Below, in pieces: positions 1-59,618 of a DNA stretch of 64,000 nt; within the stretch, counting starts at the first letter, position 1; the number at the start of each line of letters is the position of its first letter. Made by a program: the position numbers and the translations under genes. Under the pieces are notes generated by a model. That model was not told the DNA's origin. It was given only the letters and a program-made list of their open reading frames with translations, and did no database searches. Origin of the DNA: Chiloscyllium plagiosum. Lineage: Eukaryota. The stretch lies in assembly GCF_004010195.1 (NCBI RefSeq), contig NC_057719.1, forward strand, positions 5,265,029 to 5,329,028, given 5' to 3'.

Positions 1-386
1 TGCTTTTACCATGGAACAATTGCTCCCAGTCCATGCTTCATGTCTAATCGCATCATAGTTTCCACTTCCCCAATTAGATATCCTTCCATTTTGCCTAATC
101 CTCTTCTTCTCCATAGCTATGTAGAATGTGAGGCAGTTTTGGTCACTATCACCAAAATGCTCTCCCACCACCATATCTGATACCTGCCCCGGCTCGTTTC
201 CGAGCAGCCTCTCCCCTCGTCGGCCTGTCAACGTACTGAGTTAGGAAACCCTCCTGAACACACCTTACAAAAACAGCTCCATTCAAATCTTCTGCTCGAA
301 GGAGGTTCCAATCAATATTGGGAAAGTTAAAGTCACCCATTACAACAACCCTACTACGTCCACACTTTTCCAAAATCTGCCGAGCT
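1..386 (-). mobile_element. CR1-type LINE fragment (AP-endonuclease region)
   Basis: Translation VVVMGDFNFPNIDW...FLTQYVDRPTRG is typical of the CR1 ORF2 endonuclease. Confidence 0.9.
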
Positions 387-1210
387 ATTTGAAAATCTTC
401 TCTGGTTCCCAGAAACATTTATTGGAAAACAGGTTTTCAGGAGACAAACATATAGCCTCTATGGGTCTTCTTCACACTGAAACCTGGGTCTGTAAAAAGG
501 ATTCTAAGACTAAAAGTTGTTGCATAAAAGATAGCATCAAGGTTTCCATTTCATTCCAAATTCAGGATGTTTTGGTTACAAAGTTTATAAAGTCTTATCT
601 CCTTCAGAGCTTTACATGGCTGTTTCTCCAAGCCACATGATTCTCAGTCACAACCAGTAAACGAATAAACCATTAGTTTCATTTCCAAAAAATCAGATTT
701 AAAAGACACTAACCAATGCAGGTCCTTATTGGTCAATATCTTGCAGATTGTTCGAGATGATCCTTCAATATTAAAATGTGTTCATCCTTGGGAAATGAAA
801 TGCCATGTCAGACTGTGTTCATGATGCGGTAGTCATGAAAGCATATGGGCAGCACGGTGGCACAGTGGTTAGCACTGCTGTCTCACAGCGCCAGAGACCC
901 GGGTTTAACTCCCGCCTTGGGCAACTGTCTGTGTGGAGTTTGCACATTCTCCCCATGTCTGCGTGGGTTTCCTCCGGGTGCTCCGGTTTCCTCCCACAGT
1001 CCAAAGATGTGCAGGTCAGGTGAATTTGTCATGCTAAATTGCCCATAGTGTTAGGTGAAGGGGTATATGTAGGGGACAGTTGTTCGTTGGAGGGTGGACT
1101 TGTTGGGCCGAAGGGCCTGTTTCCACACTGTAGGGAATCTAATCTAATCTAAAATAAGACACAAAAGACTTAAACAAACATTCTCAATCATTCATTATAT
1201 AAAACCTACT
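387..1210. repeat. Unclassified dispersed repeat, inverted copy of 27410-27925 (interrupted by SINE 847-1151)
   Basis: Shared translations RFSGDKHIASxGLxxTETWVCKKDS on opposite strands; the DNA homology continues past the SINE. Confidence 0.8.
847..1151 (+). mobile_element. HE1-type (V-SINE) tRNA-derived SINE
   Basis: Head GGGCAGCACGGTGGCACAGTGGTTAGCACTGC with A/B-box-like motifs, central GGAGTTTGCACATTCTCCCC, and an (AATCT)n tail. Confidence 0.92.
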
Positions 1211-1233
1211 CATTCCCTCAGCGTCTTCTTTCG

Positions 1234-1531
1234 ATTAGATTACTTACAGTGTGGAAACAGGCCCTTCGGCCCAACAAGTCCACATCGCCCCGCCGAAGCG
1301 CAACCCACCCATACTCCTACATCTACCTCTTACCTAACACTACGAGCAATTTAGCATGGCCAATTCACCTGAGCTGCACATCTTTGGACTGTGGGAGGAA
1401 ACCGGAGCAAACCCACGCAGACACGGGGAGAATGTGCAAACTCCACACAGTCAGTCGCCTGAGGCGGGAATTGAACCCAGGTCTCTGGCGCTGTGAGGCA
1501 GCAGTGCTAACCACTGTGCCACCGTGCTGCC
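1234..1531 (-). mobile_element. HE1-type SINE
   Basis: Reverse complement of the 847-1151 family. Confidence 0.92.
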
Positions 1532-1584
1532 CACTCCAAACATTTCACACCATGGTATTCTTGATAGTACTTCAGCAATCGCAT

Positions 1585-1857
1585 TATTAGATTAGATTCC
1601 ATACAGTGTGGAAACAGGCGCTTCGGCCCAACCAGTCCACACCGACCCACCCAGACCCATTTCCCTCTGACTAATGCACCCAACACTATGGGCAATTTAG
1701 CATGGTCAATTCATCTAATCTACACATCTTTGGACTATGGGAGGAAACCGGAGCACCCGGAGGGAACCCATCCAGACAGTCGCCCGTGGCTGGAATCCAA
1801 CCTGGGACCCTGGTGCTGTGAGGCAACAGTGCTAACCACTGAGCCACCATGCCACCC
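1585..1857 (-). mobile_element. HE1-type SINE
   Basis: Reverse complement of the same family. Confidence 0.9.
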
Positions 1858-2679
1858 TTTTTAAGGCAATACGATAAATCTTTACATGATTGTGATAAAT
1901 GAGCAAACTGCAGAAATACATTCTTCTATGTTAATGTATACATTTTTTGAAGGGATTATGGTTAGTTTAGAATGGCATTTCTTTGTGCTTGTAGCTGGTA
2001 TTCACTTTGAGGTATTTCAGAGTTGGTGACAATTCCAGAGCTTCTTTGGTATTGGAAAGTATTTCTTATGATTCTTATTTATTTTCTTAGAAAAGTACCC
2101 CACTGGCCTCCCTGTGCCAGATTCATCTCCTTGGAATAAGACAGCACTGACACACACACCCACACCCACATTACTGGCATCATCACCATTTTAATGAGTT
2201 TAGTGAAGTCGGGTTGTCCAATACTGTTTCATTTCTTAGGAATGCCTTCAGGTTTCTTTGCACACTATAGATCATTTTACCTTTGCCTGTTTTGCAATAA
2301 ATCTACTGGGGTGACAAGCATCGTTCTGAAACCTGATATAAACATTCGAAACAAACACATTTCTAAAAAATCTATTGATTTCCTCCTGAGCTACAGGATA
2401 TAGAAATTCTATTAAAGCCTTATCTTGCCCTATCATGTGTATCTAATATGTTACCCACAATTTCACAAGCTCACTCTTAGCAGGATTTATGTCTAGATCA
2501 GCTAGCTGTCGCTGTTTAAGTAAGGCTTCCAATTGAATTATATATTGTTCCAATGTATGGCTGTATTAATTCATTTTCCGTACAAACTTCACAGTTAATG
2601 AAATTATGGTTCACAAGTGATCAGAAAGACACCAAATGTGTTTTTGAACTCAAATGGCATAACTCAGTGTCAGAGAAGA

Positions 2680-2940
2680 AAGGTGATGGCTTAACAATTT
2701 TGTCACTAGACTGTTAATTCAGAGATCCAATTAATGTTCTGAGGACCTCGGTTCAAATCCTGCTTAAGCAGATGGCGGAATTTGAAATCAATAATAATCA
2801 GGAATTTGGAGTCTAATGAAGACTATGAAATCATTCTTGATTGTAGGGAGAGACCTATCTGGTTCATTAATGTCCTTCAGGGAAGGAAATTACTACCATT
2901 ACCTGGTCTGGTCTATTTCTAATTCCTCACCCACATTAAT
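2680..2940 (+). mobile_element. Second, older tRNA-like SINE family (decayed)
   Basis: B-box-like ggttcaaatcc, then gcagatggcggaatttgaa...ctggttcattaatgtccttcagggaagg. Related copies at 3055-3335 and 39913-40125. Confidence 0.6.
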
Positions 2941-3054
2941 CCACAGAGCTCCATATAGTTTGACTAGGTTCAATCAAATAATTTTCAAACATTGTTTCTT
3001 CAAGACTTAGAGAACAAGGAAGTTATTTATTGATGCAGATTCCCCCGTTACAGG

Positions 3055-3335
3055 ATGTGGGTTTCAATCCCACCATGGCAGACGATGGAATTTGAAGTTA
3101 TAAAGAACTGGAATAAATAGCTAGTCTTATGGTGACCATGTAACCCTTGTTGATGGCCATGAAACCTTCCTGGTTCACTGATGTCCTTCAGTGAAGGAAA
3201 TCAACCAGCATTTCCCAATCTGCTTCAATACCGACAGCAATGTGCTTGACGATGAACTGTTCTCTCGGCAATTACAGATGGGCAATAAATGGCAGGCTAG
3301 CCAGGGATGCCCACATCCCATGCACAAAGGAATTA
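3055..3335 (+). mobile_element. Older SINE copy with LINE-like 3' tail
   Basis: Similar to 2680-2940; tail ggcaattacagatgggcaataaat...gccag resembles the end of the element at 16785-16850. Confidence 0.6.
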
Positions 3336-3847
3336 AAATCTACATCATTCTTAATAAAATCAAACATCCTGCTTTTTCTTCATGTATTTCCTTGCATTCC
3401 TGAGTCCTTACATCCTACAACATTCTCGCATAGACCTTCCTCTCAGTGGGAAAATACAACTTGTATCTGTTCCATTACTTTGGTATTGGCTAACAGTGAC
3501 AGGTACAAATTCTGAATTGTCCACAATTCTTTCCATCTCTCTCTTACTGTCGCTGTCTTCTTCCTCTATTGTTTAAATAACTGAGATACCTGCTCATTTT
3601 TATCAATTTCATTACAATGCTTTCAGAAAGTAAATGCCACTTGTTTTCCTGTGAATTTGACTGACTACCAATTGAACCACTTCAATAAATTTCTTAACCA
3701 TCTTGCCTGGGCCACTGAATCCTGCATGATCCCCCTGCGTGGTAATTATACCAATGCTTCATCTCCTGTTTGTTGTGTTCTGGTTTTAACATGCATATCT
3801 GCCCAACCTTTCCTTGTTGCCTGGGAACTTTTTAAATACTCACATGT

Positions 3848-4420
3848 ATTATGGACCAGGTCACACCCCCTCAAATATTTTAAGAATGTAGCCTAGACCT
3901 TAACTTTGCTTATTTTAAAGACAGATGTGAAGTAGATATTCCAGGTATGATGCAGCTGGTCAAACCACTCAGCTTTAACCAAAACAGAGTTTATTTAAAT
4001 GCTGCAGCTGAATGAAGAACAAAAGAAAACCAAATATAGAATAACTTACTTATTGGAAGACCTAACTAATGCGACACAGTAATGTAACTAAGGAGCTGTT
4101 CCAATTCCTGTAACATCCCATAAACACACCCCTTGGCAAAAGGTAAATTCAAACAGGTTCTGACAGGTAAGAGAGATTTCAGAGAGAAAGGTCAGTCAAG
4201 AACCTTTCTCTGCACTGCAGCAGCTTCTCTGTTACAGCTGGACCAGCAGCTTCTCACTGTTATGAATAAACCAAACTAGAAAATATCTGAACTGGGAGAA
4301 CTTGCCACTCCCCTACTATAGTTAAGCTGAGGTCTTTCCAAATATTTCGGCACTTCTGCCTTTACAACCTCTTTAAACAAAAAATCAAGGTCAAAGCAAC
4401 CTTGCCAAAGCAATGTCACA
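3848..4420 (-). mobile_element. Solo LTR of the Gmr1-type Gypsy family
   Basis: Reverse complement resembles LTRs 10434-11072 and 15337-15958; absent from the paralogous site at ~40625. Confidence 0.8.
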
Positions 4421-4774
4421 CATGGCATTATCGTCACACATGGTATTATCGTCACACATGGTATTTTGCATCCTGTAGATGCAGAAATGCAGGCACATAA
4501 TCTACTGCAGAGGATGCGTCTTTTAGAGTCATAGAGTCATTGTCCTATAACTTTTTGCTTGATCGATTATTGTGGATCACTTACCTCATGATCATTAATT
4601 ACATGAATACATGAATCATGAATATATTAAACACAACAGATTCACTTCATGAATCTCTGGTAGAAAGTCACAGAAAAACCAGATGTTTGTCCCAATCAGA
4701 GGGATATTGATTAAAGCATGTTTTAATCATTGTCTTTAGAGTCTGATGGGAGCTCACTGTGTTTGTGGATTATA

Positions 4775-5069
4775 TGATTAGATTAGATTACTTACAGTGT
4801 GGAAACAGGCCCTTCGGCCCAACAAGTCCACACCGACCCTCCAAAGAGCAACCCACCCAGACCCATTCTCCTACATTTACCCCTTCACCTAACACTACGG
4901 GTAATTTAGCATGGCCGATTCACCCAACCTGCACATTTTTGGGCTGTGGGAGGAAACCAGAGCACATAGGGAGAATGTGCAAACTCCACACAGACAGTTG
5001 CCTGAGGCAGGAATTGAACCTGGGTATATGGCGCTGTGAGGCAGCAGTGCTAACCACTGTGCCACCCCA
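4775..5069 (-). mobile_element. HE1-type SINE
   Basis: Same family; flanked by ATATG direct repeats; absent from the paralogous site at ~40925. Confidence 0.92.
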
Positions 5070-5162
5070 TATGCTGTGACTACAACTGTTTTATACTCAA
5101 ATTATCCATTTTGGCCTGAGCACTTTGAAATAAATTGAAACAGTTTGTCTGACAGTGTTTCG

Positions 5163-5595
5163 ATTCACACAACAGCTTATAGCCAAAAGGTTTCGTTGGA
5201 AGGACTAGTTTTCGGAGCACTGTTCCTTCATCAGGTCGCTGTGGAACAGGATCATAAGACACAGAATTTATAGCAAAAGATTACAGTGTCATGCAACCGA
5301 TTGTCAGGGGTAAATATAAGGGACAGGTAATGGGTCTGAGTGTGTTACTCTTTAGAGGGTCGGTGTGCACTTGTTGGACCGAAGGCCTTGTTTCCACACT
5401 GTACAGATTTTATGATTCTATGATTCTATGAACTTAAATGATATATTAAAGAAATCTAGATTGCTGTTTTCAATTAACCTAAACCTGCAACCCATTCTAA
5501 AAGATGAAAGAGTTAATAGCAATCTAGGGTATAAGCTGGTGTTGTGTGCTTTTTAACTTTGTCTACTCCAGTCCAATACCAGCTCCTCCACATCA
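5163..5595. mobile_element. Penelope-derived palindromic short element with a nested SINE 3' fragment (~5303-5430)
   Basis: Same family as 52993-53203 and 23975-24157; a hammerhead-like motif is on the minus strand at 5203-5237. Confidence 0.65.
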
Positions 5596-6079
5596 TGTAT
5601 TTCTATTATAATACTTACTAGTAGCTCATAATGAATAAAAAAATGATTTGTCCACCCGAGTTGCAAATGTCCCCAAAGAAATGAATTCTAGAAACAAAGT
5701 AGTCAAACCCATATTAGGCCACTAAGCCTATTGGGGCTGCCCTGTCATTCAATACACTTCAATAACATTTACCAGCCATTGGTAAACAGAAATCCATCAA
5801 TCTCTGCACTAAACATACTCAAGAACTGAGATTGAACAGTTGTCAGTGGCACAAAGTTCCAAATGTTCCTCTGATTCAATAAATTCACCTCATCTCACAC
5901 CTAAGTGGAAATCTGTTGATTCAATTACCAAACTAGCCAACTGCTTTTCTCTTGTACTATTATCTCAAAACTAACAAATGTCTACCATGATCATTCAGTG
6001 ACCTCAAAATACTCTATTATAAATAAAATTACTATTATAGCAAAGTGCAAACTCTGATTAACACTGAAGCGATAGTGAG

Positions 6080-7295
6080 TTTTGAGAAGATTTGTGGCTC
6101 AGGTTGCGGTTCTGGATGTAGGTTTGCTCACTGAGCTGCAAGGTTCATTATCAGGCGTTTTGTCTCCAAAATAGATAACATCTTCAGTGAGCCTCCGGAC
6201 GAAGCATTGCTGATGATTCCTGTTGTCTATTTTTATGTTTGAGTTTCTTTGGGTTGGTGAGGCCATTTCCTTGGTAATGTCATTTCCTATGGTGATGACA
6301 TTTCCTGTTCTTTTTCTCAGGTAGTGGTAAATTGAATCCAAGTCAATGTGTTTGTTGATAGAGTTCCAGTTGGAATGTCATGCTTCTAGGAATTCTCGTG
6401 CATGTCTCTGTTTGGCTTGTCCGAGGATGGATGTGTTGTCCCAGTCGAAGTGGTGTTGTTCCTCATCCTTATGTGAGGATACTAGTGAGAGAGGGTCATG
6501 TCTTTTTGTGGCTAATTGGTGTTCATGTCTCCTGGTGGCTAGTTTTCTGCCTGTTTGTCCAATGTAGTGTTTGTTACAGTCCTTGCATGGTATTTTGTAA
6601 ATGACATTAGTTTTGCTCATTGTCTGTATATGAACACAGTCTGTAGATTTCTCAGCATCAAACCCAAACAAGCAAACAAAACACACCCAGAAACCCTAGG
6701 TCAGACCCCTTGGCACCATGGTAGCCCACAAACCCAACAACACGCTAAAACAGCAGCTAATGAACTTGAAAGACCCTATACGGACAACAAGCAAAACTGA
6801 TGTTATTTACAAAATACCATGTAAGGACTGTAACAAACACTACATTGACAAACAGGCAGAAAACTAGCCACCAGGATACATGAACATCAACCAGCTAAAA
6901 AATGACATGACCCTCTCTCACTAGTATCCTTACATACAGATGAGGAAGGACACCATTTCGACTAGGACAACACATCCATCCTTGGACAAGCCAAACAGAG
7001 ACACGCACAAGAATTCTTAGAAGTATGGCATTCCAACCAGAACTCTATCAACAAACACATTGACTTGGACCTGATTTACCACCTACTGAGAAAAAGAACA
7101 GGAAATGACATCACCAAAGGAAATGATATCACTGCAGTAAATGGCATCATGAGCCCAAAGAAACCCAACATTTAATAGAAAGCAGGAATCATCATCAATG
7201 CTTCATCCGGAGGCTCACTGAAGATGTTACCTAGTATGGTGATGAAACGTCTGAAAATTAAACTTCCAGCTCAGTGACCAAACCTACATCCAGAA
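6080..7295. mobile_element. Penelope-like element (GIY-YIG endonuclease end) in head-to-head inverted arrangement
   Basis: NVIYKIPCKDCNKHYIGQTGRKLATRxHEH on the minus strand (6378-6630), and the same sequence on the plus strand from ~6795. The arms are inverted repeats. Confidence 0.9.
7215..7254 (+). ncRNA. Minimal (Penelope-type) hammerhead ribozyme motif
   Basis: tca-CTGAAGA-t-gttacc(tagtat)ggtgat-GAAA-cg-TC-tga: intact core, stem II, palindromic ACGT stem III, GUC triplet, stem I tca/tga. Confidence 0.65.
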
Positions 7296-8250
7296 CTGAA
7301 GCAATGATCCAAAATTAAAAGCATGTCCCTGGTATCTCATGCACAGACACAATCACTGAACACAAAAAAGTTCATCCCTGCAGAGATAATTTTAAAAAGG
7401 AAGAAGGGACATAACAACCCTGCGGGCTCAGTACACATTAAATTGTTGGCTTCATTTCCAAAAAAGAACACTTTTAAAAGAAATCCTTTCAATACAGATA
7501 ATACCCAAATAGTCCAAAATCTTCCAGCTTTTCCAATTGTTGTTTGTCAAACATAAATTCAGAAATTCCAAACATAAATACATAACCCCAACAGTAATTG
7601 AATGATAACCAACATCTGGAAGTAATTTGCCAGAGCAACCCCAGAACGTCCCTATTTATACTTCAATGACTTGAAAACTAACTCTTGCACAATCTAATAA
7701 CTTTACCATGAGAACTACCCAGCATTGTGAAATCTACCATCCATCCTGAGATATACTCACCATCATGAAATGTTCCCATACACTACTGAATAAAAGCAAG
7801 TGGGAAGGTTCACGAAGTTGAAAATAGAAGTTGCGTATCAGGGACAAGTCACATTTTTTTGAAATGTAGGATGGAGATATGGATCATTGATAAAGAAGGG
7901 GCTGGTGGTTTGTCAGTTTTGACAGGTATAGAGAGACAGGTGTGGAGTATTGAAGGTAGGCTCGAATGGCTCCTGATTATGGTGTCATCTCTGGGCTGAG
8001 ACAGTTCATTTTCACAGTGTTATCGAATGGGGAGGAAGGGGACAGGCCACAATAATGTATCTGCCTGATATTGAAAGGGATTGTTGGAATGATGGAGGAT
8101 GGAACAAGATTGGGAAGGGAGAGGGATGAGAGTTTGAAATGAAAAGAAAGAAACATTTAAAAGATGACAGTAAAGTGTGAAATAAGAAATTGCTTCAATT
8201 TAATCGGAAACTCATTTTCATTGTGAGAAAAAAATATTCCGTACGGCTTG

Positions 8251-9068
8251 TTCCACCAACAATAACATTTCTCATTGTACTGTTCACCGGCACTGATATT
8301 CTTTACTGGGTCAACTGAACAGGTGTAAGATTCTACAGTTTGACAGTCTCCTGAGCTGAAGATGACAAGTTTGGTCTTGGTCAGTCGGGATGTGATGCTG
8401 GGAAAGAAGGGGCGGGAAAGGAATCAAATTTCTCGGAAAACTTGGTCATTTGTTTGTACTTGTCTCGGTTACAGCCTCTAAGTCTCGGAGATTCCTGCAC
8501 TAAAGGGCACGGCGCTGTGATGTAGAGAGCTCTCTCTCTCTCTCTCTGACGGCTACATAAACTCACCTTCAGACCAGAAATGGTGCAGAAACAGCACAGG
8601 GGGTGTGTGTGTGGATGTAGATGGTGCTCAGTCTCTGTGAGAAGGCGGTGATGATATAGATCGGTGTGAGTCCTGGTTTCTCCTTGACCCTTAAGCACTT
8701 GTTGTGAATGCCAGTCCGTGCAAATCGAGGGGGATAGAGGCGACTAACTGTAACGTGGAAAGAGTCGCCAAACTTCACATCGATCAATTCACCCAAGAAG
8801 GAAATTCCGGAACAGGTCCGACTGTCTGTCAGGAATAGACAACAGGGACTGACTCACAGGTAACACTTCCATTGGTTTCTAACCATCCGCAGAACCCAGG
8901 GGAGAGAATGAAGTGTAGTGCACGAAGAGCAAGAGAAGTTGGCGGGAAAATCAGAGCTGAGTGATTTGATGACAGTTTTTGTTTCGAAGTTGTTAAACTG
9001 TGAAAGTGTCTCTGTTACTCTCAGCAATCCGCGGGACATGGACCTGGTGGGATTGGATATTCCTGGTT
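8251..9068 (+). promoter_or_regulatory. Putative promoter / non-coding first exon block, copy A
   Basis: Non-TE-looking and relatively CpG-rich. Contains GC box GGGGCGGG (8409), GAS-like TTCTCGGAA (8430), (CT)n, TACATAAA (8554), donor-like GTGAGT (8666), AP-1 TGACTCA (8850) and CAG|GTAAC (8860). Near-identical copies at 41.7 and 56.3 kb; lies upstream of paralog 1. Confidence 0.55.
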
Positions 9069-9244
9069 TGGATCAAACACAGAAATTGCTGGAGATAGTC
9101 AGCAATTCTCTCTGCTTCCAGTAGCAGCGGTGTGTGTACCATCTACAAGATGCACTGCAGAAATTCACCCAATACCCTCAGACAGCACCGTCCAAACCCA
9201 CAACCACTTCCAGCTGGAAGGGCAAGGGCAGCAGAAATCTGAAA

Positions 9245-10433
9245 ATGCAAAAACCCAAAAGAACTGCGGGGGCTGGAAATCTGAAACAATAATAGAAATT
9301 GCTGGAAAATCTCAGCAGGTCTGGCAGCATGTGCAGACAGAAATTAGAGTTAATGTATAGGGTCCAGTGACCTTTCATCAGAACTGATGGTGGCTAGGGA
9401 AAGGATGGTTTACATACAGAAGATAGGGTACGGGGAAGGGGGGGTTGGGTGATTAAACAGAGATGGACATAGACCCGAGAGAGAGAGAGAAAAACAGTTG
9501 AATTGTCAAAGGAGTGGTTAAAGATCTGTTTCTAGGGAATGGATGCCTACTAGTGGGTAGTGTGTGGTAGCAGCCTATGATACCAGGCCTGGTGTGTGGG
9601 GATTTGGGGTAAGGACTTGGAAGAAAGTACCTCACACCCCAAAATTGTTCAACTTGATATTGAGTCCAGAAAGCTGTAGAGTCTCCAAGTGGAAACTTAG
9701 GTGGTGCTCTTCCAGCTTGCTCTGAGCTTGGTTGGAGCACTGCAGTTACAGATGTTGGGGCCAGGGAACAGAGTGGTGTGTTGAAGTGGCATGCAACTGG
9801 AAGCTCAGGGTAATTTTAGTCGATGGAATGTTGGTGTTCCGCAAAGTGGTTGCCCAGCCTGCATTTTGTCTCCCCATGCGTACAGGAGACCACATTGTGA
9901 GCAGCGAATGCAGTAGACTGGATTGAGTGAAGTGCGCTGCTTCACCAGGATGGTGTGTTTGGGCCCTTGGACAGTGAGGAGGGAGGAAGTAAACAGGCAG
10001 GTGTTACACCTTCTGCAGTTGCAGGGGAAGCTGCTGTAGGTCTGTGGGAGACTGTTGGGAGGAGAGGAAGATAGGATCAAGGTGTCCTGGAGTCAATGTA
10101 CCTATGGAAGGTTGAGAGTGGAGGGGGTATGTGTCTGTTGGGGGCATCCTGCTGGAGATGGCAGAAGTGGGAGCTAATGATCCTCGGGATGGGGATGTTG
10201 GTTGGATGGTGGGTGAGGACAAGGGGGACCCTATTGCTGTTGTGAGAAGGAAGAGAGTGGCTGAGAGTGAAGTGCGTGAGATGGATTGGACCTGGCTGAG
10301 GGCCCTGTCAATTACGGTGCTGGGGAAGCCTCGGTTGAGGAAGAAGGTGGAGATTTCAGAGGCCCCTATGTCAAAGTTAACATCATCAGAACAGCTGCAA
10401 GAGATGGAGGAACTGGGAGAATGGAATAGAGAC
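9245..10433 (-). mobile_element. Penelope-like element, 3' part (GIY-YIG); split by Gypsy insertion
   Basis: VYCIRCSQCGLLY motif; the sequence continues at 15959. Confidence 0.85.
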
Positions 10434-13400
10434 TCTGATGGTGCTCCTCCTTTAACAAGGTTAGGTTGTCCTTGGGTTTTTTTTTCAGAGAGGTCATAAA
10501 GACAGGGTCTCTGTTTTGTCTGTGTTTACCTATTTGAAGAAACATTTTAAATAAAAACAAACACTTGTACAATGAAAGTGGAGTGGTCACTTCTCTCAGC
10601 TCAGCTTTACTCGGATTTGGTATGGTTTGATTTGGGTTTAGTAGTCTGGCAGTTCAGAGCAAGCAGTCAGTTTTGAGGTTGCTGCTCGAGGAAACAGCTC
10701 TATGGAAGAAAGTGTTCCATGCTGAATCTCTCTGCCATCTCTCTCTCCTCTGTAAGACCCTGTGTTTGATTTTACCTTTTTTGCCAAGGGGCGTTTCCGA
10801 GGATTGTTGCAAGTATTTAGAACAGCATCATTAAATTGGGATAATCTGTTGGATTTTTGGATAAATTAAGTTATTCTGTATTCTGTTCTCTTTTGTTTGT
10901 GTTTCATTTGGTACTTTGTGAATAAATTATGTTTTGTTTAAAAGTGAGGGGTTTTGACCAGCTGTGTCACTCCTGGAATATCCATTTTACACCTGCTCAA
11001 AGCAACTCGAAAGGTTAGGGTCTGGGCGACCTTCTTGCACTGTTTTGAAGGAGTCTGCCCTGGTCCACAACAGATTGGGAGTTTGAGATTTGTTTTATAA
11101 TTCTGATTTGGGATTAGGTTTGCTGGACTCAAAAGCAGAGAGTAGTAGGTGTTCATGTCTTTTGTTCTGGATGTTGAATTCTATTGGTTTAAACAATGCT
11201 GGGGATAGCAATGGCTCTTTCAGTTACTAAGAGTCTTCTGGGGGCGGAAGAAGTGACTTTGGGGACCTTAGAAAAGGTAAGTAAGGCCAAGCTGCTGGGA
11301 TTAGCCGACAATCTGGAGTTGGATCTGCCTCCTTCCATCAGAAAAGGAGAGATAATTACAGCAATAGCTCAGTGTTTTAAATTGCTGAAAACACCACCAG
11401 AATCTTTGGAGGTGGGTAAAATTCAATTAAAAATGAAGCAGTTTGAGTTAGCGGCAAAAGACAAGGACAGAGTAAAAGAAATGAAACTGTTTGAATTATG
11501 ATTAAAAGCTGAGGAAAGAGAAAAAGAATGAAAGACCCCAGCAGAATAAATAAAAAGTGGAAGAGAGAGAGAAAAGGAGAGAGAGGAAAGTAAGAAAGAG
11601 AGAGTGTTTGAACTTCAGAAACTGGCACTTAGACAGGAAAGTCAATTTAAATGGATGGGGATGAAGACTGAACATAAGCTCAGTGAGGAAGAGAGTGAGG
11701 ATGAGCAAACCCATGGGAACCAAAGGCCTGGTGAGAAACTGTTTAAATATATTCATGCATTGCCTAAATTTGATGAGAAGAAACCAGAAGCCTTTATCAT
11801 CTCATTTGAGAAGGTGGCTAAATAAATGCAGTGGCCAGTGATTATGTGGGTTTTGTTGATCCAAACAAAACTTGTATGTAGAGCTCGTGAGGTCACATCA
11901 CCATCAGAGGAGGTATCTGGGGTGTGTGAGAAGGTGAAGAAAGCCAGTTGAAGTGCATATGAGCTTGTACCAGAAGCCTACAGACAACGTTTCAAGAATT
12001 TAAGGAGGGACTCTGGTTGAAAGGATCAAAGAAAGTAATTTTGATCTGTGGATAAGGGCATTCAAACCAGAGCAAACCTATAACACTCTTACAGAGACAA
12101 TTATTTTGGAGGAGTTCAAAAATTCACTTCCTGAAATAGTGATAACTCTTCCACAAGAGCAGAGAGTTAAAACAATAAGATTAGCAGCTGAAATGGCTGA
12201 TGATTATGAGTTGGTTCATAAATCACTGTTTGGCTTCAACATCAATTTCAATCCACCAGGGATAGAAACTGGGGGGAAGGTGGATCTCGGTGAAGATCAC
12301 AAGGATAACTTACCACAGGGTAAAAGAGAAACCCTTGAAGGGAAAAGAGAGGTTAAAAAGCTCTGGTGTTTTCACTGCAATAAGATAGGCCGCATGAAAT
12401 CAGTATTGGTGCATGAGAAAAAGCACTGGGAAGAGAGATGTAGGAAAACAGATAAGCCAGTGAATTTTGTTGGAGGGTAACGGAAAGCACAGTGGAGGGT
12501 AAAAAGCTGCACCAGAATGTACAACTGGTTGGAGATTGGTTAAGGAGGAAGTGCCAGATCTTTTCAAACCATATACCTGCAAAGGGTATAGACCAGGAGC
12601 AGCAGGTAAAGAGGTTTCAATATTACGAGATACAGGATTCTTTCAATCTTTGATGTTGAAAGATGAGGCGACATGTACCTCTGAAGGACTATTGCCAGAA
12701 AAAGTGCCAGTAACAGGAATTCACGCTGAGACCATAAGCGCTCAGTTATATAGAGTGAAGTTAGGGTTTCCAGTGAAATGTGGGGAAGTCATGGTTGGAG
12801 GACTGGACAAACTCTCAGCTGTGGGAATACAATTTGTCCTTGCTAATGATATCGCTGGTTCACAGGTAGAAATGTTGTCTGCTGTGTTTGAAAAGCCAGT
12901 GGAAACTCGGGCTATTGCAGGACACACATCCTGGGATTTTTTTGTGACTGTGTGGTAATGAGGTCACCAAGTCACCAGTGGAAACAGGAGAGATCAAAGA
13001 ATACAGATAAGAAGGCTGAAGTGGAATTACCAAAGACCCTGTGTGATCAAATGGTTGTCACAAAACAGGAGCAGATAGGTGACAAAGCAGATGTCCTTAG
13101 TTCAGGAAAACAGCAGAAGCAGGAGAAACTAAACCAACTGTATCAAAAAGCAGACACAGAAGAAGAATCTAAATGTATCCCGGTGTGCTCTTAGCTTAAA
13201 ATGATGTCTTAAAGAAGAAATGGAGACCATCACATATTCAGATAGATGAGAAATGGGCAGATGTTCATCAAGTCATGTTGCCAGTGGGTTATAGAAAGGA
13301 GGTGTTTCAGGTGAGGAATGAACTACCAATAGGGGATCATTTATGTGTAAGGAAAACCCAAGCTAAAATACAACATTTTTACTGGCCTGGAGTGCACAAG

Positions 13401-15958
13401 GGTGTAGTAGAATTTTTGCCAGACATGTCATACATGTCAGATAATTGGAAAACCACAGGAGTTAATAAAACCCACACCTTTAATACTATTCCTGCATTTG
13501 AGGAACCTTTTATAACAGTCTTAATTTGATTGCAAAGGACCCCTCTATGAGAGAAATTGGGAATCAGTATTTGTTAACAATAATGGTTGTGTCTGCTAGA
13601 CTTCCAGAGGCCATTCCATTATGCAAAACGATTGTAGAGGAGTTACTCAAATGTTTCACTACATATGGACTACCCACTGAGGGACAATCAGATCAAGGGT
13701 CAAACATCACATCAAAATTATTCAAGGAAATTATGGACACCTTAGGAATAAAACATTTCAAATCTACTGCATACCATCCAGAATCGCAGGGAGTGCTATA
13801 AAAGTGGCATCAGACATGAGACACCATGTTGAGGACATATAGTTAAGACTATCCCGATGATTGTTTGTACTTTTTGCGATCAGAGATGCATCAAATGAAT
13901 CAACCAAGTTCAGTCCATTTGAATTAGTTTTTGGGCATGAAGTGAGAGGATGCTAAAATTGATTAAGGAGAAATTTCTAAGTCAAAATTCAGAAATAACA
14001 TATTTGGACTAATGTGTAAGAATTTAGGGAATGATTAAATAGAGTGGGGGAGTTGGCTAGACAGCATTTAAAGTATCACAGCGTACAATGAAACAAGAAG
14101 CAGACAAGAAATCAAAACTCATAATTTTGCTATCAGAGATACTTCCAGTGATGGCTCAACCTTTAAAAGCAAGGTTTAGTGGATCTTATCAAGTCAAAAG
14201 AAGATAGAGTGAGGTGAACTATTGTATCAGGACTCCAGACACAAAGACATCTCACAGAGTTGTCACGTGAATATGCTGAATAAGTATTTTGATAGGGAAG
14301 GAAAGTCAAAGAAGATTGTGTCATTGGTTACAACACAGAGTGAAGAATTAAGTTCAGAGCATTCTGAATTTGAAATTCCTCAAATTACATTGGACAATGA
14401 GGAAGTTGTCAAAAATTGTGATAAGTTATTGCCTTACCTTCCAGAGGAAAATCAGAATGAACTGAAATAATTATTACTACTGCATGGGGAGATGTGTGGA
14501 AATAAGTGATTTTGCCAATGCCCAAGTCACTTTCCTGGGCCATATTGTTGGACATAGACAAATGGTCCCACGGGATGCAAAAACAAAGGGAATTGGGGAG
14601 TTTCCCAGATCATCGACAAAGAAAGCTGTACTACAATTCCTGAAATTGAGTGGATTTTATCAAAGATTTGTACCAACCATTAGCAGTGTGGCTGCTCCAC
14701 TCACTGAATTACTAAAGAAATGCAAGACGTTTCAGTGGACAGGAATCTGACAGTCTGAAAGTTGCCCCAGTATTGCCACGTCTAATTAGGCAAAACCATT
14801 CAAGGTGGTTATCGATGTGTGTAGATTGGTGCTGTGCTCTTACAGGAAGACGATGAGAAGATAGAAAGACCTACAGATATTTGTCCAGGAAATTGAACAT
14901 TTATCAGCAGAAATACTCAACAGTTGAGAAGGAGACTTTGAGCTTGGTGTTGGCATTACAACATTTCTATGTTTCTCTTACCAGTAATGTATCTGAGATA
15001 ATCATATACACTGATCATAATGCATTGAAATTTGTGGAGAAATTTAAGGATAAGAATTCCAGACTGTTTAAGTGGAGCTTGTTGTTACAGCCATTCCATT
15101 TGACAATTGCGCATGTGGCTGGACAAGGAAACATGATTGCTGACACATTGTCGAGACTGGGATGAGGTAGGGAGGTGTTTGATGGTGGGAGTAAAACAGA
15201 CTGTAATATATTTTAGTGTGCATGTTTGCATGATTTTATATATATATGTGGTAGTCTACTAACAGTGTAGGTTTAAAGGGTTTTAAAATGAAGTCATCTT
15301 TAAATATTGATGGTTCAATATTTTATGGGGGGAGGGTGTAATGATGCTGCTCCTTTAACAAGGTAGGTTGTCCCTGGGTGTTTTTTCAGAGGGGTTGTAA
15401 ATACAAAGGGTCCGTTTTGACTGCATTTATCTATTTGCAGAAGCTTTTAAATAAAAAAAACTTGCACAAAGAAAGTGGAGTGGTCAGTTCTCCCAGCTCA
15501 GTTATACTCTGGTTTGGTTTGAGCAGTCTGGCTATTCAGAGCAAGCAGTCAGTCAGTTTTGAGGTTGCTGCTGAAAGATACAGCTCCATGGAAGAAAGTG
15601 TTCCATGCTGAATCTCTCTGCCATCTCTCTCTCTGCTGTAAGACTCTGTGGTTGATTTTATCTTTTTTGCCAAGGGGTGTTTACAGCGATTGTTGCAAGT
15701 ATTTGGAACAGCGGTAGTAGATTGAGATAATCTGTTGGGTTTTCAGCTAGGTGATGTTACTCTGTTTTCTGCTCTCTTTTCTTTGTGTTTCATTCAGTAT
15801 TCTGTGAATACATTGTGTTTTGTCTAAAATCGAGGAGTTTTGACCAGCTGCATCCCTCCTGGAATATTCACTTTACACCTGCTCAAAACAACGAGTAAAG
15901 TTAGAGTCTGGGCTACCTTCTTGAAATGTTTTGAGAAGGCCTGGCCTGGTCTATAACA
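10434..15958 (+). mobile_element. Gmr1-type Ty3/Gypsy LTR retrotransposon, decayed (LTRs 10434-11072 and 15337-15958)
   Basis: Direct LTRs, a PPT before 15337 and an imperfect 4-bp TSD AGAC/AGTC. Domain order: gag (LPKFDEK..PEAYRQRF, CFHCNKIG knuckle), protease LRDTG (~12625), integrase (HFYWPG, SDQGSN, TAYHPESQG; 13275-13800), RT remnant FLGHIVG (~14530), RNase H YSTVEKE..YTDHN (14881-15165). Many stops. Confidence 0.92.
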
Positions 15959-16530
15959 AGTCTTTACAGGGAGCAGGGTGTGAGGATGTATGGTCAAGAA
16001 AACAGTGGGAATCAGTGGGTTTGTAATGGATATCTCTGGCCAGCCTATCCCCAGATATGGAATCAGAGACATCAAGAAAGGGAGGAGAGGAGTCAAAGAT
16101 GGACCAGGTATAGGTGAGAGTGGGCTGGAAATTAGAAGCGAAATAAATTTTGCCAAATCCAGACAAGCAAGGGAAGTATCACCGATGACATCATTGATGT
16201 ATCAGAGATTGAGCTTTGGGTGGTGGGGGGACGGTGTTTGTGTGTGTGTGGCTGGAGTAGGACAGAAACAAGGAATGTTCCATGTACTCCTTAATGAAAC
16301 ACTCATACCTGGGTCCCACGTAGATGTCCATGGCCACCTCTTTGATTTACGTAAAGTGAAAGGAGTTAAAGGAGAAGTTGTTCAAAGTGAGGATGAGCTG
16401 GGCAAGGCAGATGAGGGTGTTGGGGAATGGGCACAATTTGGGCCTGGTTTGCAGGAAGAAGAGGAGAGCCCTGAGACCATCCTGATGGGGGAATGGATGT
16501 GTAATGGGATTGCATGTCTCTGGTGAAGAG
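15959..16530 (-). mobile_element. Penelope-like element, RT part (continuation of 9245-10433)
   Basis: LICLAQLILTLNNFSFNS and IHYKPTDSH motifs. Confidence 0.85.
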
Positions 16531-16855
16531 GAGGCAGCTGGAGCCTGTGAACTGGAAATTCTCCAACTGACATGAAATGTCAGAAGAACCGTGAATGTAA
16601 ATGGAAAATGAAAATGCAAGTTCCACTCCAAGCCATTCACCATCCTGACTTGGAAATATATCACCATTCTTTCACTCTCACTGGGTCAAAATCCTGGAAT
16701 TCCCTCGCTCAGGGTATTGTGAGTTTAGCCACAGCTCATGGACTGCCACAGTTCAAGAAAGCAGCTCAACACCATCTTCTCAAGGGCAATTAGAGATGGA
16801 CAATAAACACTGGCCCAGCCAGTAATAGCCATGCCTCATGAGTGAATAAATAAAG
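16530..16855 (+). mobile_element. Old LINE-type 3' end fragment
   Basis: GSKSWNSL..GL.QFKKAAxHHLLKG followed by a gggcaattagagatgg..aataaa tail. Related decayed copies at ~9110-9245, 17750-18145 and 58960-59240. Confidence 0.6.
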
Positions 16856-17298
16856 GGACTGGCAACATTTGTGGAGAGAAAGCAGAGCTAAATTTCGAGT
16901 CCAGTGACCCTTCTTCAAAATTTATTCTCCCAGTTTCTCTGTATCTGTTGCATCTGTTCTGACAATGCCACCTTCCACAGAGGCTCTCACAAATGTCCAC
17001 CTTTTTTCTCAACCAAGGATCCCCAGGGCCATACCTAACCCATTTCCCACACTTTGCAGGGGGCATTTCACATGTGGTCAGGTGGTCACAAGCCACTGAC
17101 CATCTGCAACAGTCCCCATTCCAACAACCATTCCTGCTCTGCTTGTGCAGAGGATCAGAGTGATTTTATTGCAGTAGGGAGTGAATTGCATGTTTGCAGG
17201 GAGACACTGAGAGAGGGAATGGTGAGACTGGGAAGAGGTTTGGAACATGGATTGGAAATTGAAATGGAGCTGTTGGGGAATTGGCTGAGGGTTCTTTT

Positions 17299-17599
17299 TT
17301 AGATTAGATTACTTACAGCAAGGAAACAGGCCCTTCATCCCAACAAGTCCACACCGACCCGCCAAAGAGCAACCCCACCCAGACCCATTCCGCTACATTT
17401 ACCCCTTCACCTAACACTACGGGCAATTAAGCATGGCCAATTCACCTCACCTGCACATTTTTGGACTGTGGGAGGAAACCCACGCAGACACGGGTAGAAT
17501 GTGCAAATTCCATACAGAGAGTCACCTGAGGCAGGAATTGAACCCGGGTCTCTGGCGCTGTGAGGCAGCAGTGCTAACCACTGTGCCACCGTGCTGCCC
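17299..17599 (-). mobile_element. HE1-type SINE
   Basis: Same family; absent from the paralogous sites at ~42840 and ~57420. Confidence 0.92.
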
Positions 17600-18344
17600 T
17601 AATGATGAATGGGATACAGGTAATGGGTGGGTCAGTGCAGTCAGGGAGAGACCATGAGCAGCAGGAACATGCATGCCCACTCTGTCCCTCTGGTACCATC
17701 CAGCCCACTCTTTAAGACATGGCATCAAGTAGCAGTGAGCCCCTGCTTCATCATTCCAGCAATGTGCACTGACCACAGGACACACTGCAGAAACTTAACA
17801 AGTTTAACATCACCTACACATACCCAAACCCTACCACCCAGATGGACAATGGCAGCAGATACTTGGGAACACCACCACATGCAAGGTTGCCCCCACACCA
17901 AACACCATCCTGGCTTGGAAATACACTGCCATGCCTAATCACAACTACCAACAGATCAGCCAGTGGAATGAGCTGGGAATCTATCTCTGTCATGACATTC
18001 CTTCAGTTTTGCTGGGTCAAAATCCTGGATATCTCTCTGCAACAATCCTTTGAGTGTAATTATCTACAGGAGTTCAAGAAGGCAGTTTACTATCACCTTC
18101 TCCAGGGCATTTGGACCAGCCTCAGTACTAATGCTGATGTCTGAACAAAAAATAAGAAAAAAAGTCATGTCACTGAAGAGGCTGAGAAATGATTCAAAAC
18201 ACAGTTTGAAATTTTGAAAAATTGCAATGCTAATGTGGAAAGAACATATGAATGAGGCAGATTCTCTGGAATTTTCACACAGCTGACACTGGCACTGTGA
18301 ACATATGCCCTTTTTGTCTGCTTTACCTTTCATGATGATATTGT

Positions 18345-18372
18345 TTAACATATTCTCTGCTTTTACCCCTAG
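18345..18372 (+). promoter_or_regulatory. Probable splice acceptor of the GPCR paralog 1 coding exon
   Basis: Pyrimidine tract ttctctgcttttacccctAG, ~120 nt upstream of the start position; a homologous site is present in paralog 2. Confidence 0.6.
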
Positions 18373-18492
18373 GGAGACATATTTCAGGGAAGAAGTATTA
18401 AATACAAAATTATACAAAAGCTTGAGGACCGCAAACTCAGGAGCTCCTGAAAAACGTTTATTGGACAGATCATTCCAGGGTTGGATTGAACA

Positions 18493-19440
18493 ATCAGCAA
18501 CTGCAGTATCGACCACAGGATCCACCAGATCCTGTTTCCCGCCGTCTACATTGGGGTCTTCATCATTGGCCTCCCGACCAACCTGCTGTCCCTGTATCAC
18601 AGCTACCTACAGATCAGGCAGAAGAATGAGCTGGGAATCTATCTCTGTAATCTGACCATCTCAGACCTTTTGTACCTCCTTTCCTTACCTTTGTGGATTC
18701 AGTACATGCTGCAGCACGATGACTGGCAACATTCTCGGGAACTTTGCATCTTCAGCGGTCTGCTCCTCTACCAGAATATTTACATCAGTATTGGCTTCCT
18801 CTGCTTCATTGCCATTAATCGCTTCCTTGTTGTGGCTTACCCTCTGAAATTTAAATTCATACACAGCAGGAAGGCAGCTTTGCTCATCAGTATTCTCATC
18901 TGGCTCAAGGAGATAGCCGTCTGCACCATTTACATGGGCTCCAAGGTTCTCAGTAAAGACGAGGGGAATGACACCCTGTGTTTCGAACATTATCCTCTGC
19001 GCCTAAAGGACAAATATTTAAATATTTACAAACTCTCCATTGGCTTCGGTCTCCCTTTGATTTTATTCCTCTACTCTTACTTTAAACTGTTGAGGGTTGT
19101 GCAAAATCTCCGTGGGTCTGAACGACAGCGGAAATTAAGAATAAAAAAGTTAGTATCTGGGATAATCATAATTTTCCTGGTTTGCTTTGCCCCTTATCAC
19201 ATTTTCCTGATGGTCCGAAGCATATTTGAGTACGACTGTCCCTTTGCTGACAGTATTTTTGAGGTTTACCATGTCGGGCTGCTGCTGATGAGCTTCAACT
19301 GTGTGGCTGACCCCATCTTGTACTGTTTTGTCTCTCCAAGTTCAAAGGGTTGGTTAGCAAGGTTTCTCAATCCTGTTAGCAAGCTCCTTTCTTGTGCAAA
19401 AAGGCAAACAATCACAGATGAAAACCTCAGTTTGAATTAA
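18493..19440 (+). CDS. GPR68/OGR1-like GPCR paralog 1; open 315-codon frame but ATG replaced by ATC (non-AUG start, young pseudogene, or base error)
   Basis: The ORF track starts at TTG 18670, but the frame is open upstream to ATC-AGC-AAC-TGC (ISNCSIDHRIHQILFP...) at 18493. This aligns to ATG-AGC-AAC-TGT of paralog 2. An in-frame TGA lies at 18487-18489. There are no frameshifts or internal stops before TAA 19438-19440. Confidence 0.85.
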   Translation: MSNCSIDHRIHQILFPAVYIGVFIIGLPTNLLSLYHSYLQIRQKNELGIYLCNLTISDLLYLLSLPLWIQYMLQHDDWQHSRELCIFSGLLLYQNIYISIGFLCFIAINRFLVVAYPLKFKFIHSRKAALLISILIWLKEIAVCTIYMGSKVLSKDEGNDTLCFEHYPLRLKDKYLNIYKLSIGFGLPLILFLYSYFKLLRVVQNLRGSERQRKLRIKKLVSGIIIIFLVCFAPYHIFLMVRSIFEYDCPFADSIFEVYHVGLLLMSFNCVADPILYCFVSPSSKGWLARFLNPVSKLLSCAKRQTITDENLSLN

Positions 19441-41740: not shown

Positions 41741-42845
41741 TGTTCCACCAACATTAACATTTCTCATTGTACTGTTCACCGGCACTGATATTCTTTACTC
41801 GGGTCAACTGAACAGGTGTAAGATTCTACAGTTTGACAATCTCCTGAGCTGAAGATGACAAGTCTGGTCTTGATCAGTCGGGATGTGATGCTGGGAAAGA
41901 GGGGGCGGGAAAGGAATCAAATTTCTCAGAAAACTTGGTCATTTGTTTGTACTTGTCTCGGTTACAGCCTCTAAGTCTCGGAGATTCCTGCACTAAAGGG
42001 CACGGCGCTGTGATGTAGAGAGCTCTCTCTCTCTCTCTGACGGCTACATAAACTCATCTTCAGACCAGAAATGGTGCAGAAACAGCACAGGGTGTGTGTG
42101 TGGATGTAGATGGTGCTCAGTCTCTGTGAGAAGACGGTGATGATATAGATCGGTGTGAGTCCTGGTTTCTCCTTGACCCTTAAGCACTTGTTGTGAATGC
42201 CAGTCCGTGCAAATCGAGGGGGATAGAGGCGACTAACTGTAACGTGGAAAGAGTCGCCAAACTTCACATCGATCAATTCACCCAAGAAGGAAATTCCGGA
42301 ACAGGTCCGACTGTCTGTCAGGAATAGACAACAGGGACTGACTCACAGGTAACACTTCCATTGGTTTCTAACTATCCGCAGAACCCAGGGGAGAGAATGA
42401 AGTGTAGTGCACGAAGAGGAAGAGAAGTTGGCGGAAAAATCAGAGCTGAGTGATTTGATGACGGTTTTTGTTTCGAAGTTGTTAAACTGTGAAAGTGTCT
42501 CTGTTACTCTCAGCAATCCGCGGGACATGGACCTGGTGGGATTGGATATTCCTGGTTTGCATGATGTCGGCTTTCACTCTCCATTTCTGACAATGGAGCC
42601 AGACATAAAGGTTTGAGAAGGAACTCAGAGATTGTGGGGTTTGCCAGGTGAAAGCAGGGCTCGCAATGCTGGTGTGAGTGCGCCTGAGGATCAGAGGCAG
42701 AGGTTCAGAGTGTTTCTATTGGGTCAGGGAGTGAGTTGCAGGTTTGCAGGGAGAGCCTGAGAGAGGGTATAGAGAGACCGGGAAGAGATTTGGGACATGG
42801 ATTGGAAGTTGAAATGGAGCCGTTGGGGAATTGGCTGAAGGAGGT
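41741..42845 (+). promoter_or_regulatory. Putative promoter / non-coding first exon block, copy B (no coding exon of its own)
   Basis: Near-identical to copies A and C; donor-like sites at 42155, 42349 and ~42674. Confidence 0.55.
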
Positions 42846-56322: not shown

Positions 56323-57420
56323 TGTTCCACCAACATTAACATTTCTCATTGTACTGTTCACCGGCACTGATATTCTTTACTTGGGTCAACTGAACAGGTG
56401 TAAGATTCTACAGTTTGACAGTCTCCTGAGCTGAAGATGACAAGTTTGGTCTTGATCAGTCGGGATGTGATATTAGCAAAGGGGCGGGAAAGGAATCAAA
56501 TCTCTCAGAAAACTTGGTCATTTGTTTGTGCTTATCTCGGTTGCAGCTTCTAAGTCTCGGAGATTCCTGCACTAAAGGGCACGGCGCTGTGATGTAGAGA
56601 GCTCTCTCTCTCTCTGACGGCTACATAAACTCTCCTTCAGACCAGAAATGGTACAGAAACAGCACAGGGTGTGTGTGTGGATGTAGATGGTGCTCAGTCT
56701 CTGTGAGAAGACGGTGATGATATAGATCGGTGTGAGTCCTGGTTTCTCCTTGACCCTTAAGCACTTGTTGTGAATGCCAGTCCGTGCAAATCGAGGGGGA
56801 TAGAGGCGACTAACTGTAACGTGGAAAGAGTCGCCAAACTTCACATCGATCAATTCACCCAAGAAGGAAATTCCGGAACAGGTCCGACTGTCTGTCAGGA
56901 ATAGACAACAGGGACTGACTCACAGGTAACACTTCCATTGGTTTCTAACTATCCGCAGAACCCAGGGGAGAGAATGAAGTGTAGTGCACGAAGAGGAAGA
57001 GAAGTTGGCGGAAAAATCAGAGCTGAGTGATTTGATGACGGTTTTTGTTTCGAAGTTGTTAAACTGTGAAAGTGTCTCTGTTACTCTCAGCAATCCGCGG
57101 GACATGGACCTGGTGGGATTGGATATTCCTGGTTTGCATGATGTCGGCTTTCACTCTCCATTTCTGACAATGGAGCCAGACATAAAGGTTTGAGAAGGAA
57201 CTCAGAGATTGTGGGGTTTGCCAGGTGAAAGCAGGGCTCGCAATGCTGGTGTGAGTGCGCCTGAGGATCAGAGGCAGAGGTTCAGAGTGTTTCTATTGGG
57301 TCAGGGAGTGAGTTGCAGGTTTGCAGGGAGAGCCTGAGAGAGGGTATAGAGAGACCGGGAAGAGATTTGGGACATGGATTGGAAGTTGAAATGGAGCTGT
57401 TGGGGAATTGGCTGAAGGAG
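56323..57420 (+). promoter_or_regulatory. Putative promoter / non-coding first exon block, copy C
   Basis: Near-identical to copy B; lies ~2.2-3.3 kb upstream of the paralog 2 ATG; donor-like sites at 56732, 56926 and 57251. Confidence 0.6.
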
Positions 57421-59509: not shown

Positions 59510-59618
59510 GTGACTATTTTCGGTGAAGAGGAATTAAAAATAAAAGTAGCATTGAGGTTTGAAATCACAAACTCAGGACCTCGCAAAAAACATTTATTGG
59601 ACAGCATTGTGTTGAACG

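Follow-up and report, generated by a model that had tools for sequence, protein, structure and literature searches.

One of the GPR68-like genes in the Chiloscyllium plagiosum window (the whole stretch of 64,000 nucleotides that was analysed, to whose + strand the coordinates below refer unless a contig is named) reads ATC where its start ATG should stand. It is probably a transcribed start-loss pseudogene that is kept open by gene conversion, and likely gives little or no full-length receptor.

The GPR68-like frame L004 (18493-19440) is open from the ATC at 18493-18495 to a stop ending at 19440, and has 315 codons. The sequence at 18487-18498 is TGA ACA ATC AGC, with an in-frame TGA (18487-18489) two codons 5' of the ATC, whereas paralog 2 (L001; 59619-60599, ATG, 326 aa), a likely conversion partner, reads TGA ACG ATG AGC, with ACG ATG at 59616-59621. 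An earlier note on this DNA, made from the sequence alone, had inferred an acceptor at 18372, and the TAG at 18370-18372 (80% pyrimidine upstream) is indeed the acceptor used in RNA. The 5' leader in exon 2 (18373-18492) contains no ATG, and in the model mRNA of the ATC copy ATG is absent from exon-1 position -272 to +133. The first AUG 3' of the ATC, at 18626 (+133, A at -3), is out of frame and opens an ORF of 9 codons (18626-18655, MSWESISVI). The first in-frame ATG, at 18706, is codon 72 and lies 3' of the D67/D2.50 equivalent (codon 58); it would give a 244-aa product (18706-19440) without the N-terminus, TM1 and TM2. The frame is otherwise intact, with His at the position of human H89. 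The factual statements of the earlier note hold throughout. The context of the ATC occurs once in the assembly, and L003 provides its sole match with two mismatches.

The GPR68 cluster

A search with paralog 2 found L001, L002, L003 and L004 (the ATC copy), at 87-100% identity and within 120 kb, together with one broken copy. This cluster of four open-frame GPR68-like copies in C. plagiosum, the whitespotted bamboo shark, had been missed by the earlier note. L001, L002 and L003 all start with ATG. L003, located 25 kb upstream of the ATC copy and outside the window, is its sister and encodes a near-identical protein; the two are of equal length and have a matching C-terminus, and their flanks can be aligned for ~11 kb at 81-90%.

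The ATC-copy frame matches the rhodopsin-family 7TM domain PF00001 (E=1e-46), and its best match in the PDB is human GPR68 (E=4e-101, gapless over 301 residues, 342 bits vs 283 for GPR4). In the tree, the shark sequences group with bony-vertebrate GPR68 at 98/98 (L006 was excluded by the program). A D-glutamate cyclase gene lies tail-to-tail ~43 kb beyond paralog 2, and human GPR68 adjoins the D-glutamate cyclase gene also. As judged by the PDB match, the tree and synteny with the human gene order, the encoded protein is a GPR68 co-ortholog.

GPR68/OGR1 is characterised by a buried acidic triad of D67, E149 and D282 (PMC7948426), and its extracellular proton network consists of H269, E174, Y102, R251 and E103 (bioRxiv 2024.04.17.590000). 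Like human GPR68/OGR1, a proton-sensing class A GPCR, the ATC copy retains the equivalents of the whole triad, of four network members (H269, E174, Y102 and R251), and of C13, C258, H17, H20, H84, H89, H175 and H245. It differs from the human receptor in being one of a four-copy shark cluster, in having no ATG, in having Q for E103 (as in 4/4 cluster copies), S for H159 and D for H169, and in reading NRF for DRY; the likeness is one of sequence.

Across the cluster, E103 is Gln, DRY is NRF or NRY, H159 is Ser and H169 is Asp relative to human GPR68 (e.g. window 18772-18774 and 18817-18825), and these changes may alter pH tuning. At the H89 position, His occurs only in the two 315-codon copies, and the other cluster copies have Tyr. 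The last few residues of the genomic frame of L002 (G000:C10:5208487) differ from those of the 346-aa database protein, which suggests that L002 has a short spliced last coding exon. L019 (G000:C10:5211750-5212700), 3 kb 3' of L002, is a decayed pseudogene of a second cartilaginous-fish GPR68 lineage. Several stops and frameshifts interrupt it, and over a short stretch its sequence equals that of the cluster genes; this lineage is intact in Carcharodon, Mustelus, Heterodontus, Heptranchias and Pristis. Among titles and abstract openings of the literature on GPR68 in sharks outside subscription journals, nothing on this cluster was found.

Origin and age of the ATC

Six of the 24 listed runs were examined, five being contig sets from five studies (X1, X2, X7, X12 and X13). 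The sixth, X24, consists of raw single-cell reads, of which ~2% were read, and with a depth of ~1 at the start codon it is uninformative on the ATC. Inspection of position 18495, as proposed in the earlier note, showed that ATC stands on the ATC copy's own leader in 5/5 contig runs. Compared with the window, X1 and X13 have 0 differences over 18385-18549, X2 has 2 over 18371-18590, X12 has 2 over 18434-18538, and X7 has 3 together with a 10-letter insertion in the leader. Each instance of G at 18495 (in X2, X7, X12 and X13) is explained by contigs of other paralogs. An ATG restored on the leader of the ATC copy was found in none of the runs and, since contigs drop rare variants, such an allele may be segregating.

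In non-coding sequence, X12 differs from the window at 14/458, 13/304 and 13/245 letters (3-5%), and X1 at 3/560, 1/333 and 2/244. As ATC is present on the diverged X12 lineage, it is older than the split of that lineage, which by shark substitution rates is presumably millions of years old. In the comparison with X1 and X24 reads, coding variants are those among the listed matches, and collapsed contigs are not tied to one paralog. X13 carries organism label B, as does X12, yet matches the window at all 165 letters of 18385-18549, within which the ATC-type pieces of X12 differ from it at four places.

The occurrence of ATC in all five contig runs, including that of the diverged lineage, shows that the codon is no assembly error and did not arise recently. 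Two of the options in the earlier note, a single-base error and a very recent null allele, are thereby removed. That the only change is one base would suit an error or a private recent allele, but with ATC in five studies, two runs without a single difference around it, and a diverged lineage carrying it, such an origin is extremely improbable.

In the C. punctatum ortholog, model P0126 lacks a Met at the start site, its upstream exon being spliced into the AG just after it, which implies that ATG is absent in this species also, as judged by a protein model and not by DNA. The proteins of Hemiscyllium, Stegostoma and Rhincodon in the collection begin with Met. More widely, among the proteins of this lineage listed from sharks and rays, each of the 44 besides the ATC type does so (one is an 80-aa fragment). 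The ATC, the conservation of which among relatives the earlier note had proposed to examine, is shared by X12 and by implication by C. punctatum.

Transcription and splicing

The promoter and non-coding first exon of the ATC gene are placed at 8300-8859 (5' limit not fixed), followed by a donor GT at 8860-8861. X2, X7 and X13 have in common 27-28 loose letters before 18371, which correspond to the end of this exon (8832-8859), where GT comes next. The run records of these three do not list RNA, and the spliced state was read from the contigs. There are four near-identical, CpG-richer copies of the promoter and first exon in the genome, all in the cluster and all followed by GT, and the ATC copy is therefore not a processed copy. 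The exon spliced to it would be the one ending at 8859, chosen by proximity among the four, across an intron of 9.5 kb. A single X2 contig of 247 letters joins exon 1 to 18373 and also carries the ATC, with 29 letters on the exon-1 side (the bridging threshold being 31 letters); the junction contigs of X7 and X13 are common to the ATC copy and its sister. The ATC copy is transcribed and spliced. Its contig depth relative to the ATG sister, a poor measure, is 23.5 vs 22.9 in X7 and 7.5 vs 8.3 in X13.

Over window positions 18415-18472, X2 has leaders of the ATC, L001 and L002 types, and no L003-type leader contig was seen; this may reflect loss of the contig, or a difference between tissues or in copy number. 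Upstream of paralog 2, the promoter and first exon are present as two near-identical copies (41800-42600 and 56400-57200) that enclose no coding exon. All four copies in the cluster agree completely over ~240 nt, and the 204 kb read showed none 5' of L002.

The G>C change, together with the following AG, makes a CAG (18495-18497) that the earlier note had suggested as a new acceptor. This acceptor (ATCAG/C) is used by the C. punctatum database model, where an upstream exon supplies a new start and a receptor with a 100-residue retroelement-derived N-terminus. The first coding exon of that model corresponds to an open stretch of 100 codons in intron 1 (10158-10459), antisense to a Penelope-like (GIY-YIG) retroelement and ending in AAG before GT. 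It matches P0126 residues 1-100 at 94% in tblastn, and its frame and donor are open in the window also. However, no loose end or joint at 18498 is present in any of the three spliced-RNA runs (X2, X7 and X13, with contigs dropping rare forms), and the X2 contig is continuous across this position. The region upstream of the candidate CAG is only 40% pyrimidine. The exon frame, which tblastx links to the GIY-YIG element at 24.5-26.6 kb, recurs in the intron of the ATG sister at 96% identity, and database model P0125, which belongs to this window, begins with Thr-Ile and has no upstream exon. Rescue through this acceptor is very unlikely. Intron 1 also contains decayed retrotransposon-like frames at 12004-12958, with a SCAN match under the Pfam cut-off.

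Gene conversion and the open frame

L003 and L004 differ at 7/921 nt after codon 9 (0.8%, codons 10-315) vs 82/742 nt in the 3' flank (11%), with 7/120 differences in the leader and 6/27 in codons 1-9 (22%). Only 5 synonymous differences are seen vs 16-24 expected from flank divergence of 8-12%. The contrast between coding region and 3' flank points to gene conversion. L001 and L002, the flanks of which are barely alignable, share coding blocks of 60 nt in which 0-2 letters differ even when synonymous sites are counted. The X7 allele has L001/L002-type letters at 18504, 18506 and 18508 (codons 4-6) and retains the ATC.

Given gene conversion, the open frame is no evidence of function, and it likely stays open because conversion from the neighbouring copies overwrites lesions. 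No stop or frameshift was found in any ATC allele or in the C. punctatum model, and the second GPR68 lineage, too diverged for overwriting except locally, is full of both. A pseudogene kept intact by conversion was among the four options of the earlier note, and is the one best supported by the L003/L004 identity pattern and the relaxed-constraint counts given below. From 6 indel events in 1007 non-coding nt, 3.3 would be expected in 558 coding nt, where 0 were seen. This test was dropped, since the coding contigs of X12 merge several paralogs and conversion would lead to the same outcome.

In the proposed course of events, a tandem duplication gave rise to the ATC copy and its ATG sister 25 kb upstream, the 3' flanks of which are 11% diverged, and ATG>ATC arose before the split from the 3-5% diverged lineage. 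An intact promoter/first-exon copy lies upstream, and spliced ATC-type RNA exists. Most scanning ribosomes would bypass the AUC, initiate at the out-of-frame AUG of 18626 and terminate 9 codons later. As suggested by the identity pattern, conversion would homogenise codons 10-315 and seldom cross the start, homology to 2/3 donors ending ~8 nt upstream of it. Between conversion events, relaxed constraint would allow radical substitutions. The ATC and its spread, the splicing, the sister and the identity pattern are observed, and from them we infer the scanning, the lack of protein, conversion as the cause and the relaxed constraint.

Constraint on the ATC copy

Over the first 300 residues, the C. 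plagiosum and C. punctatum proteins differ at 13 positions in the ATC copy (position 1 omitted) vs 1, 3 and 2 in the other copies, the C. punctatum counts being small and taken from a protein model and not from DNA. Of residues absent from all 15 other cluster proteins, the ATC copy has 5 and the other copies have 1, 1 and 0 (binomial p=0.013). P28L in the C. punctatum model and P168S on an X2 contig (and in 2/15 X24 reads) replace prolines kept in 120/120 homologs, while F23S, on the same contig as the ATC, affects a site occupied solely by L or F in 120/120. The X2 contig with P168S is of L003/L004 type and comes from a run without a sister-type leader, so that, by this assignment and not by physical linkage to the ATC, alleles of the ATC lineage probably include P168S. 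The available text of the GPR68 mutational scan makes no mention of P37 or P177, the positions relevant to P28L and P168S.

Among the raw L003/L004 differences, 5 are synonymous and 2 non-synonymous (p=0.007 under neutrality), and this excess was set aside because only 1 + 1 are unique to the ATC copy after polarisation. A test on all differences (13/19, p=8e-5) was not relied on, as conversion tracts are not independent events. From the residue counts, constraint on the ATC copy may be relaxed.

For the pseudogene count the ATC in 5/5 contig runs, the ATG of L003 combined with the coding vs flank contrast, the paralog-type letters beside a retained ATC in X7, the 13 changes vs 1, 3 and 2, the substitutions at near-invariant sites, and the Met starts of the listed shark and ray proteins. 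The low context score of the AUC and the non-functional macaque TAS2R38 allele, both described below, also count for it. The copy has the hallmarks of an intact parent (L003), its own first-exon copy and 9.5-kb intron, and transcription. Against it count the lack of stops and frameshifts in the ATC alleles, the lack of an ATG-restored leader despite conversion, an RNA contig depth like that of the sister, the X2 run with the ATC leader and no sister-type leader, the raw 5:2 synonymous excess, and the score of only 0.96 for MRVI1 in the mouse library described below.

Initiation at AUC and alternative products

In the FACS-seq library of the PMC5778536 supplement, the values of which are for mouse and not shark cells, the sequence AACAAUCA (AACA-AUC-A context) reaches 0.6, with consensus AUG set at 100, and AAG and AGG in the same context score 0.3 and 0.2. 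In the same data, the downstream near-cognate codons 6, 10 and 14 score 1.5, 1.5 and 3.8, the TEAD1 context scores 6.1, and the known non-AUG site MRVI1 only 0.96. With a context this close to background, ATG>ATC and the in-frame TGA upstream would together amount to a disabling lesion. Near-cognate initiation, a further option in the earlier note, fares poorly with 0.6 for the exact context.

A functional low-dose receptor started at the AUC, or at near-cognate codon 6, 10 or 14, is unlikely, but several features would fit it. ATC is found in 5/5 runs and two lineages, the RNA is spliced, no frame break is seen, and the acidic triad and most histidines are retained. The context has A at -3 and -4, and an 8-bp hairpin is predicted at 18515-18535, starting 19 nt 3' of the ATC, with ~-11 kcal/mol compared with -1 to -7 in the paralogs (windows starting +3 to +17). 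Codons 1-9 form an island in which 22% of the letters differ from the sister, and AUC can start a full-length protein with Met in vitro (PMC5666671). However, there is no G at +4, and codons 6, 10 and 14 all score below TEAD1. The hairpin is broken in X12, where G18519 is T on the ATC contig, and depends on the Arg9 codon, Arg9 being present also in the ATG-bearing Stegostoma and Rhincodon proteins. Half of the letters in the codon 1-9 island are changes in the sister, radical substitutions are in surplus, and the sister supplies the same protein. A receptor of this kind would be a GPCR dosage-tuned by a start-codon downgrade after duplication and kept for millions of years against conversion able to restore ATG in one step, an outcome we regard as improbable.

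Alternatively, the locus could matter through a 244-aa protein of five helices that leaky scanning or reinitiation would start at Met72, or through its RNA as a decoy or conversion donor. RNA is made, and the 9-codon ORF ends 50 nt before Met72, a spacing that would allow reinitiation. However, the Met72 codon is flanked by U (-3) and C (+4), its product lacks the D67 equivalent, P168S and Y194S fall inside it, and positive evidence for either the protein or an RNA role was not found. The M97-type truncation of TAS2R38 gave no ligand response (PMC4511751). It is quite unlikely that either product accounts for the locus. In the literature outside subscription journals, no GPCR with an AUC start was found.

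Comparison with known systems and significance

The start-loss pseudogene has counterparts elsewhere. CYP21A1P, a transcribed pseudogene under gene conversion, and CYP21A2 are near-identical tandem copies tens of kb apart. The ATC copy resembles this pair in having a near-identical tandem copy tens of kb away, in being transcribed and in exchanging sequence; unlike CYP21A1P, the start codon is the only fixed lesion seen in it.

In TAS2R38 (PMC4511751), the start is ATG>ACG in macaque and ATG>AGG in chimpanzee, and the macaque allele is non-functional. There, too, the start of a GPCR has become a near-cognate codon and the next in-frame Met removes N-terminal helices, but those alleles are polymorphic at the population level with loss of function tested, whereas the ATC is found in every informative run and in two lineages, beside an ATG sister. 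EIF4G2 (GUG) and TEAD1 (AUU) are genes started solely at non-AUG codons with protein evidence (PMC5666671). As in these genes, the full frame of the ATC copy opens at a near-cognate codon, but its context is weak (0.6 vs 6.1 for TEAD1) and its hairpin is not conserved. GPR42/FFAR3 (PMC4531286) is likewise a tandem GPCR duplicate that is transcribed, polymorphic and was a suspected pseudogene; it differs in being functional when expressed, and the abstract mentions no start loss. The case of GPR42 counsels caution in declaring copies of this kind dead before they have been assayed.

Annotation goes wrong at this locus, with one database model starting at Thr and another taking 100 residues from an antisense repeat. 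If initiation at AUC were true, the receptor would be an unusual GPCR. As a pseudogene, the ATC copy is a clear case of gene conversion making a start-less copy look intact, and, being one conversion event from reactivation, it would suit a population study of reversible gene loss.
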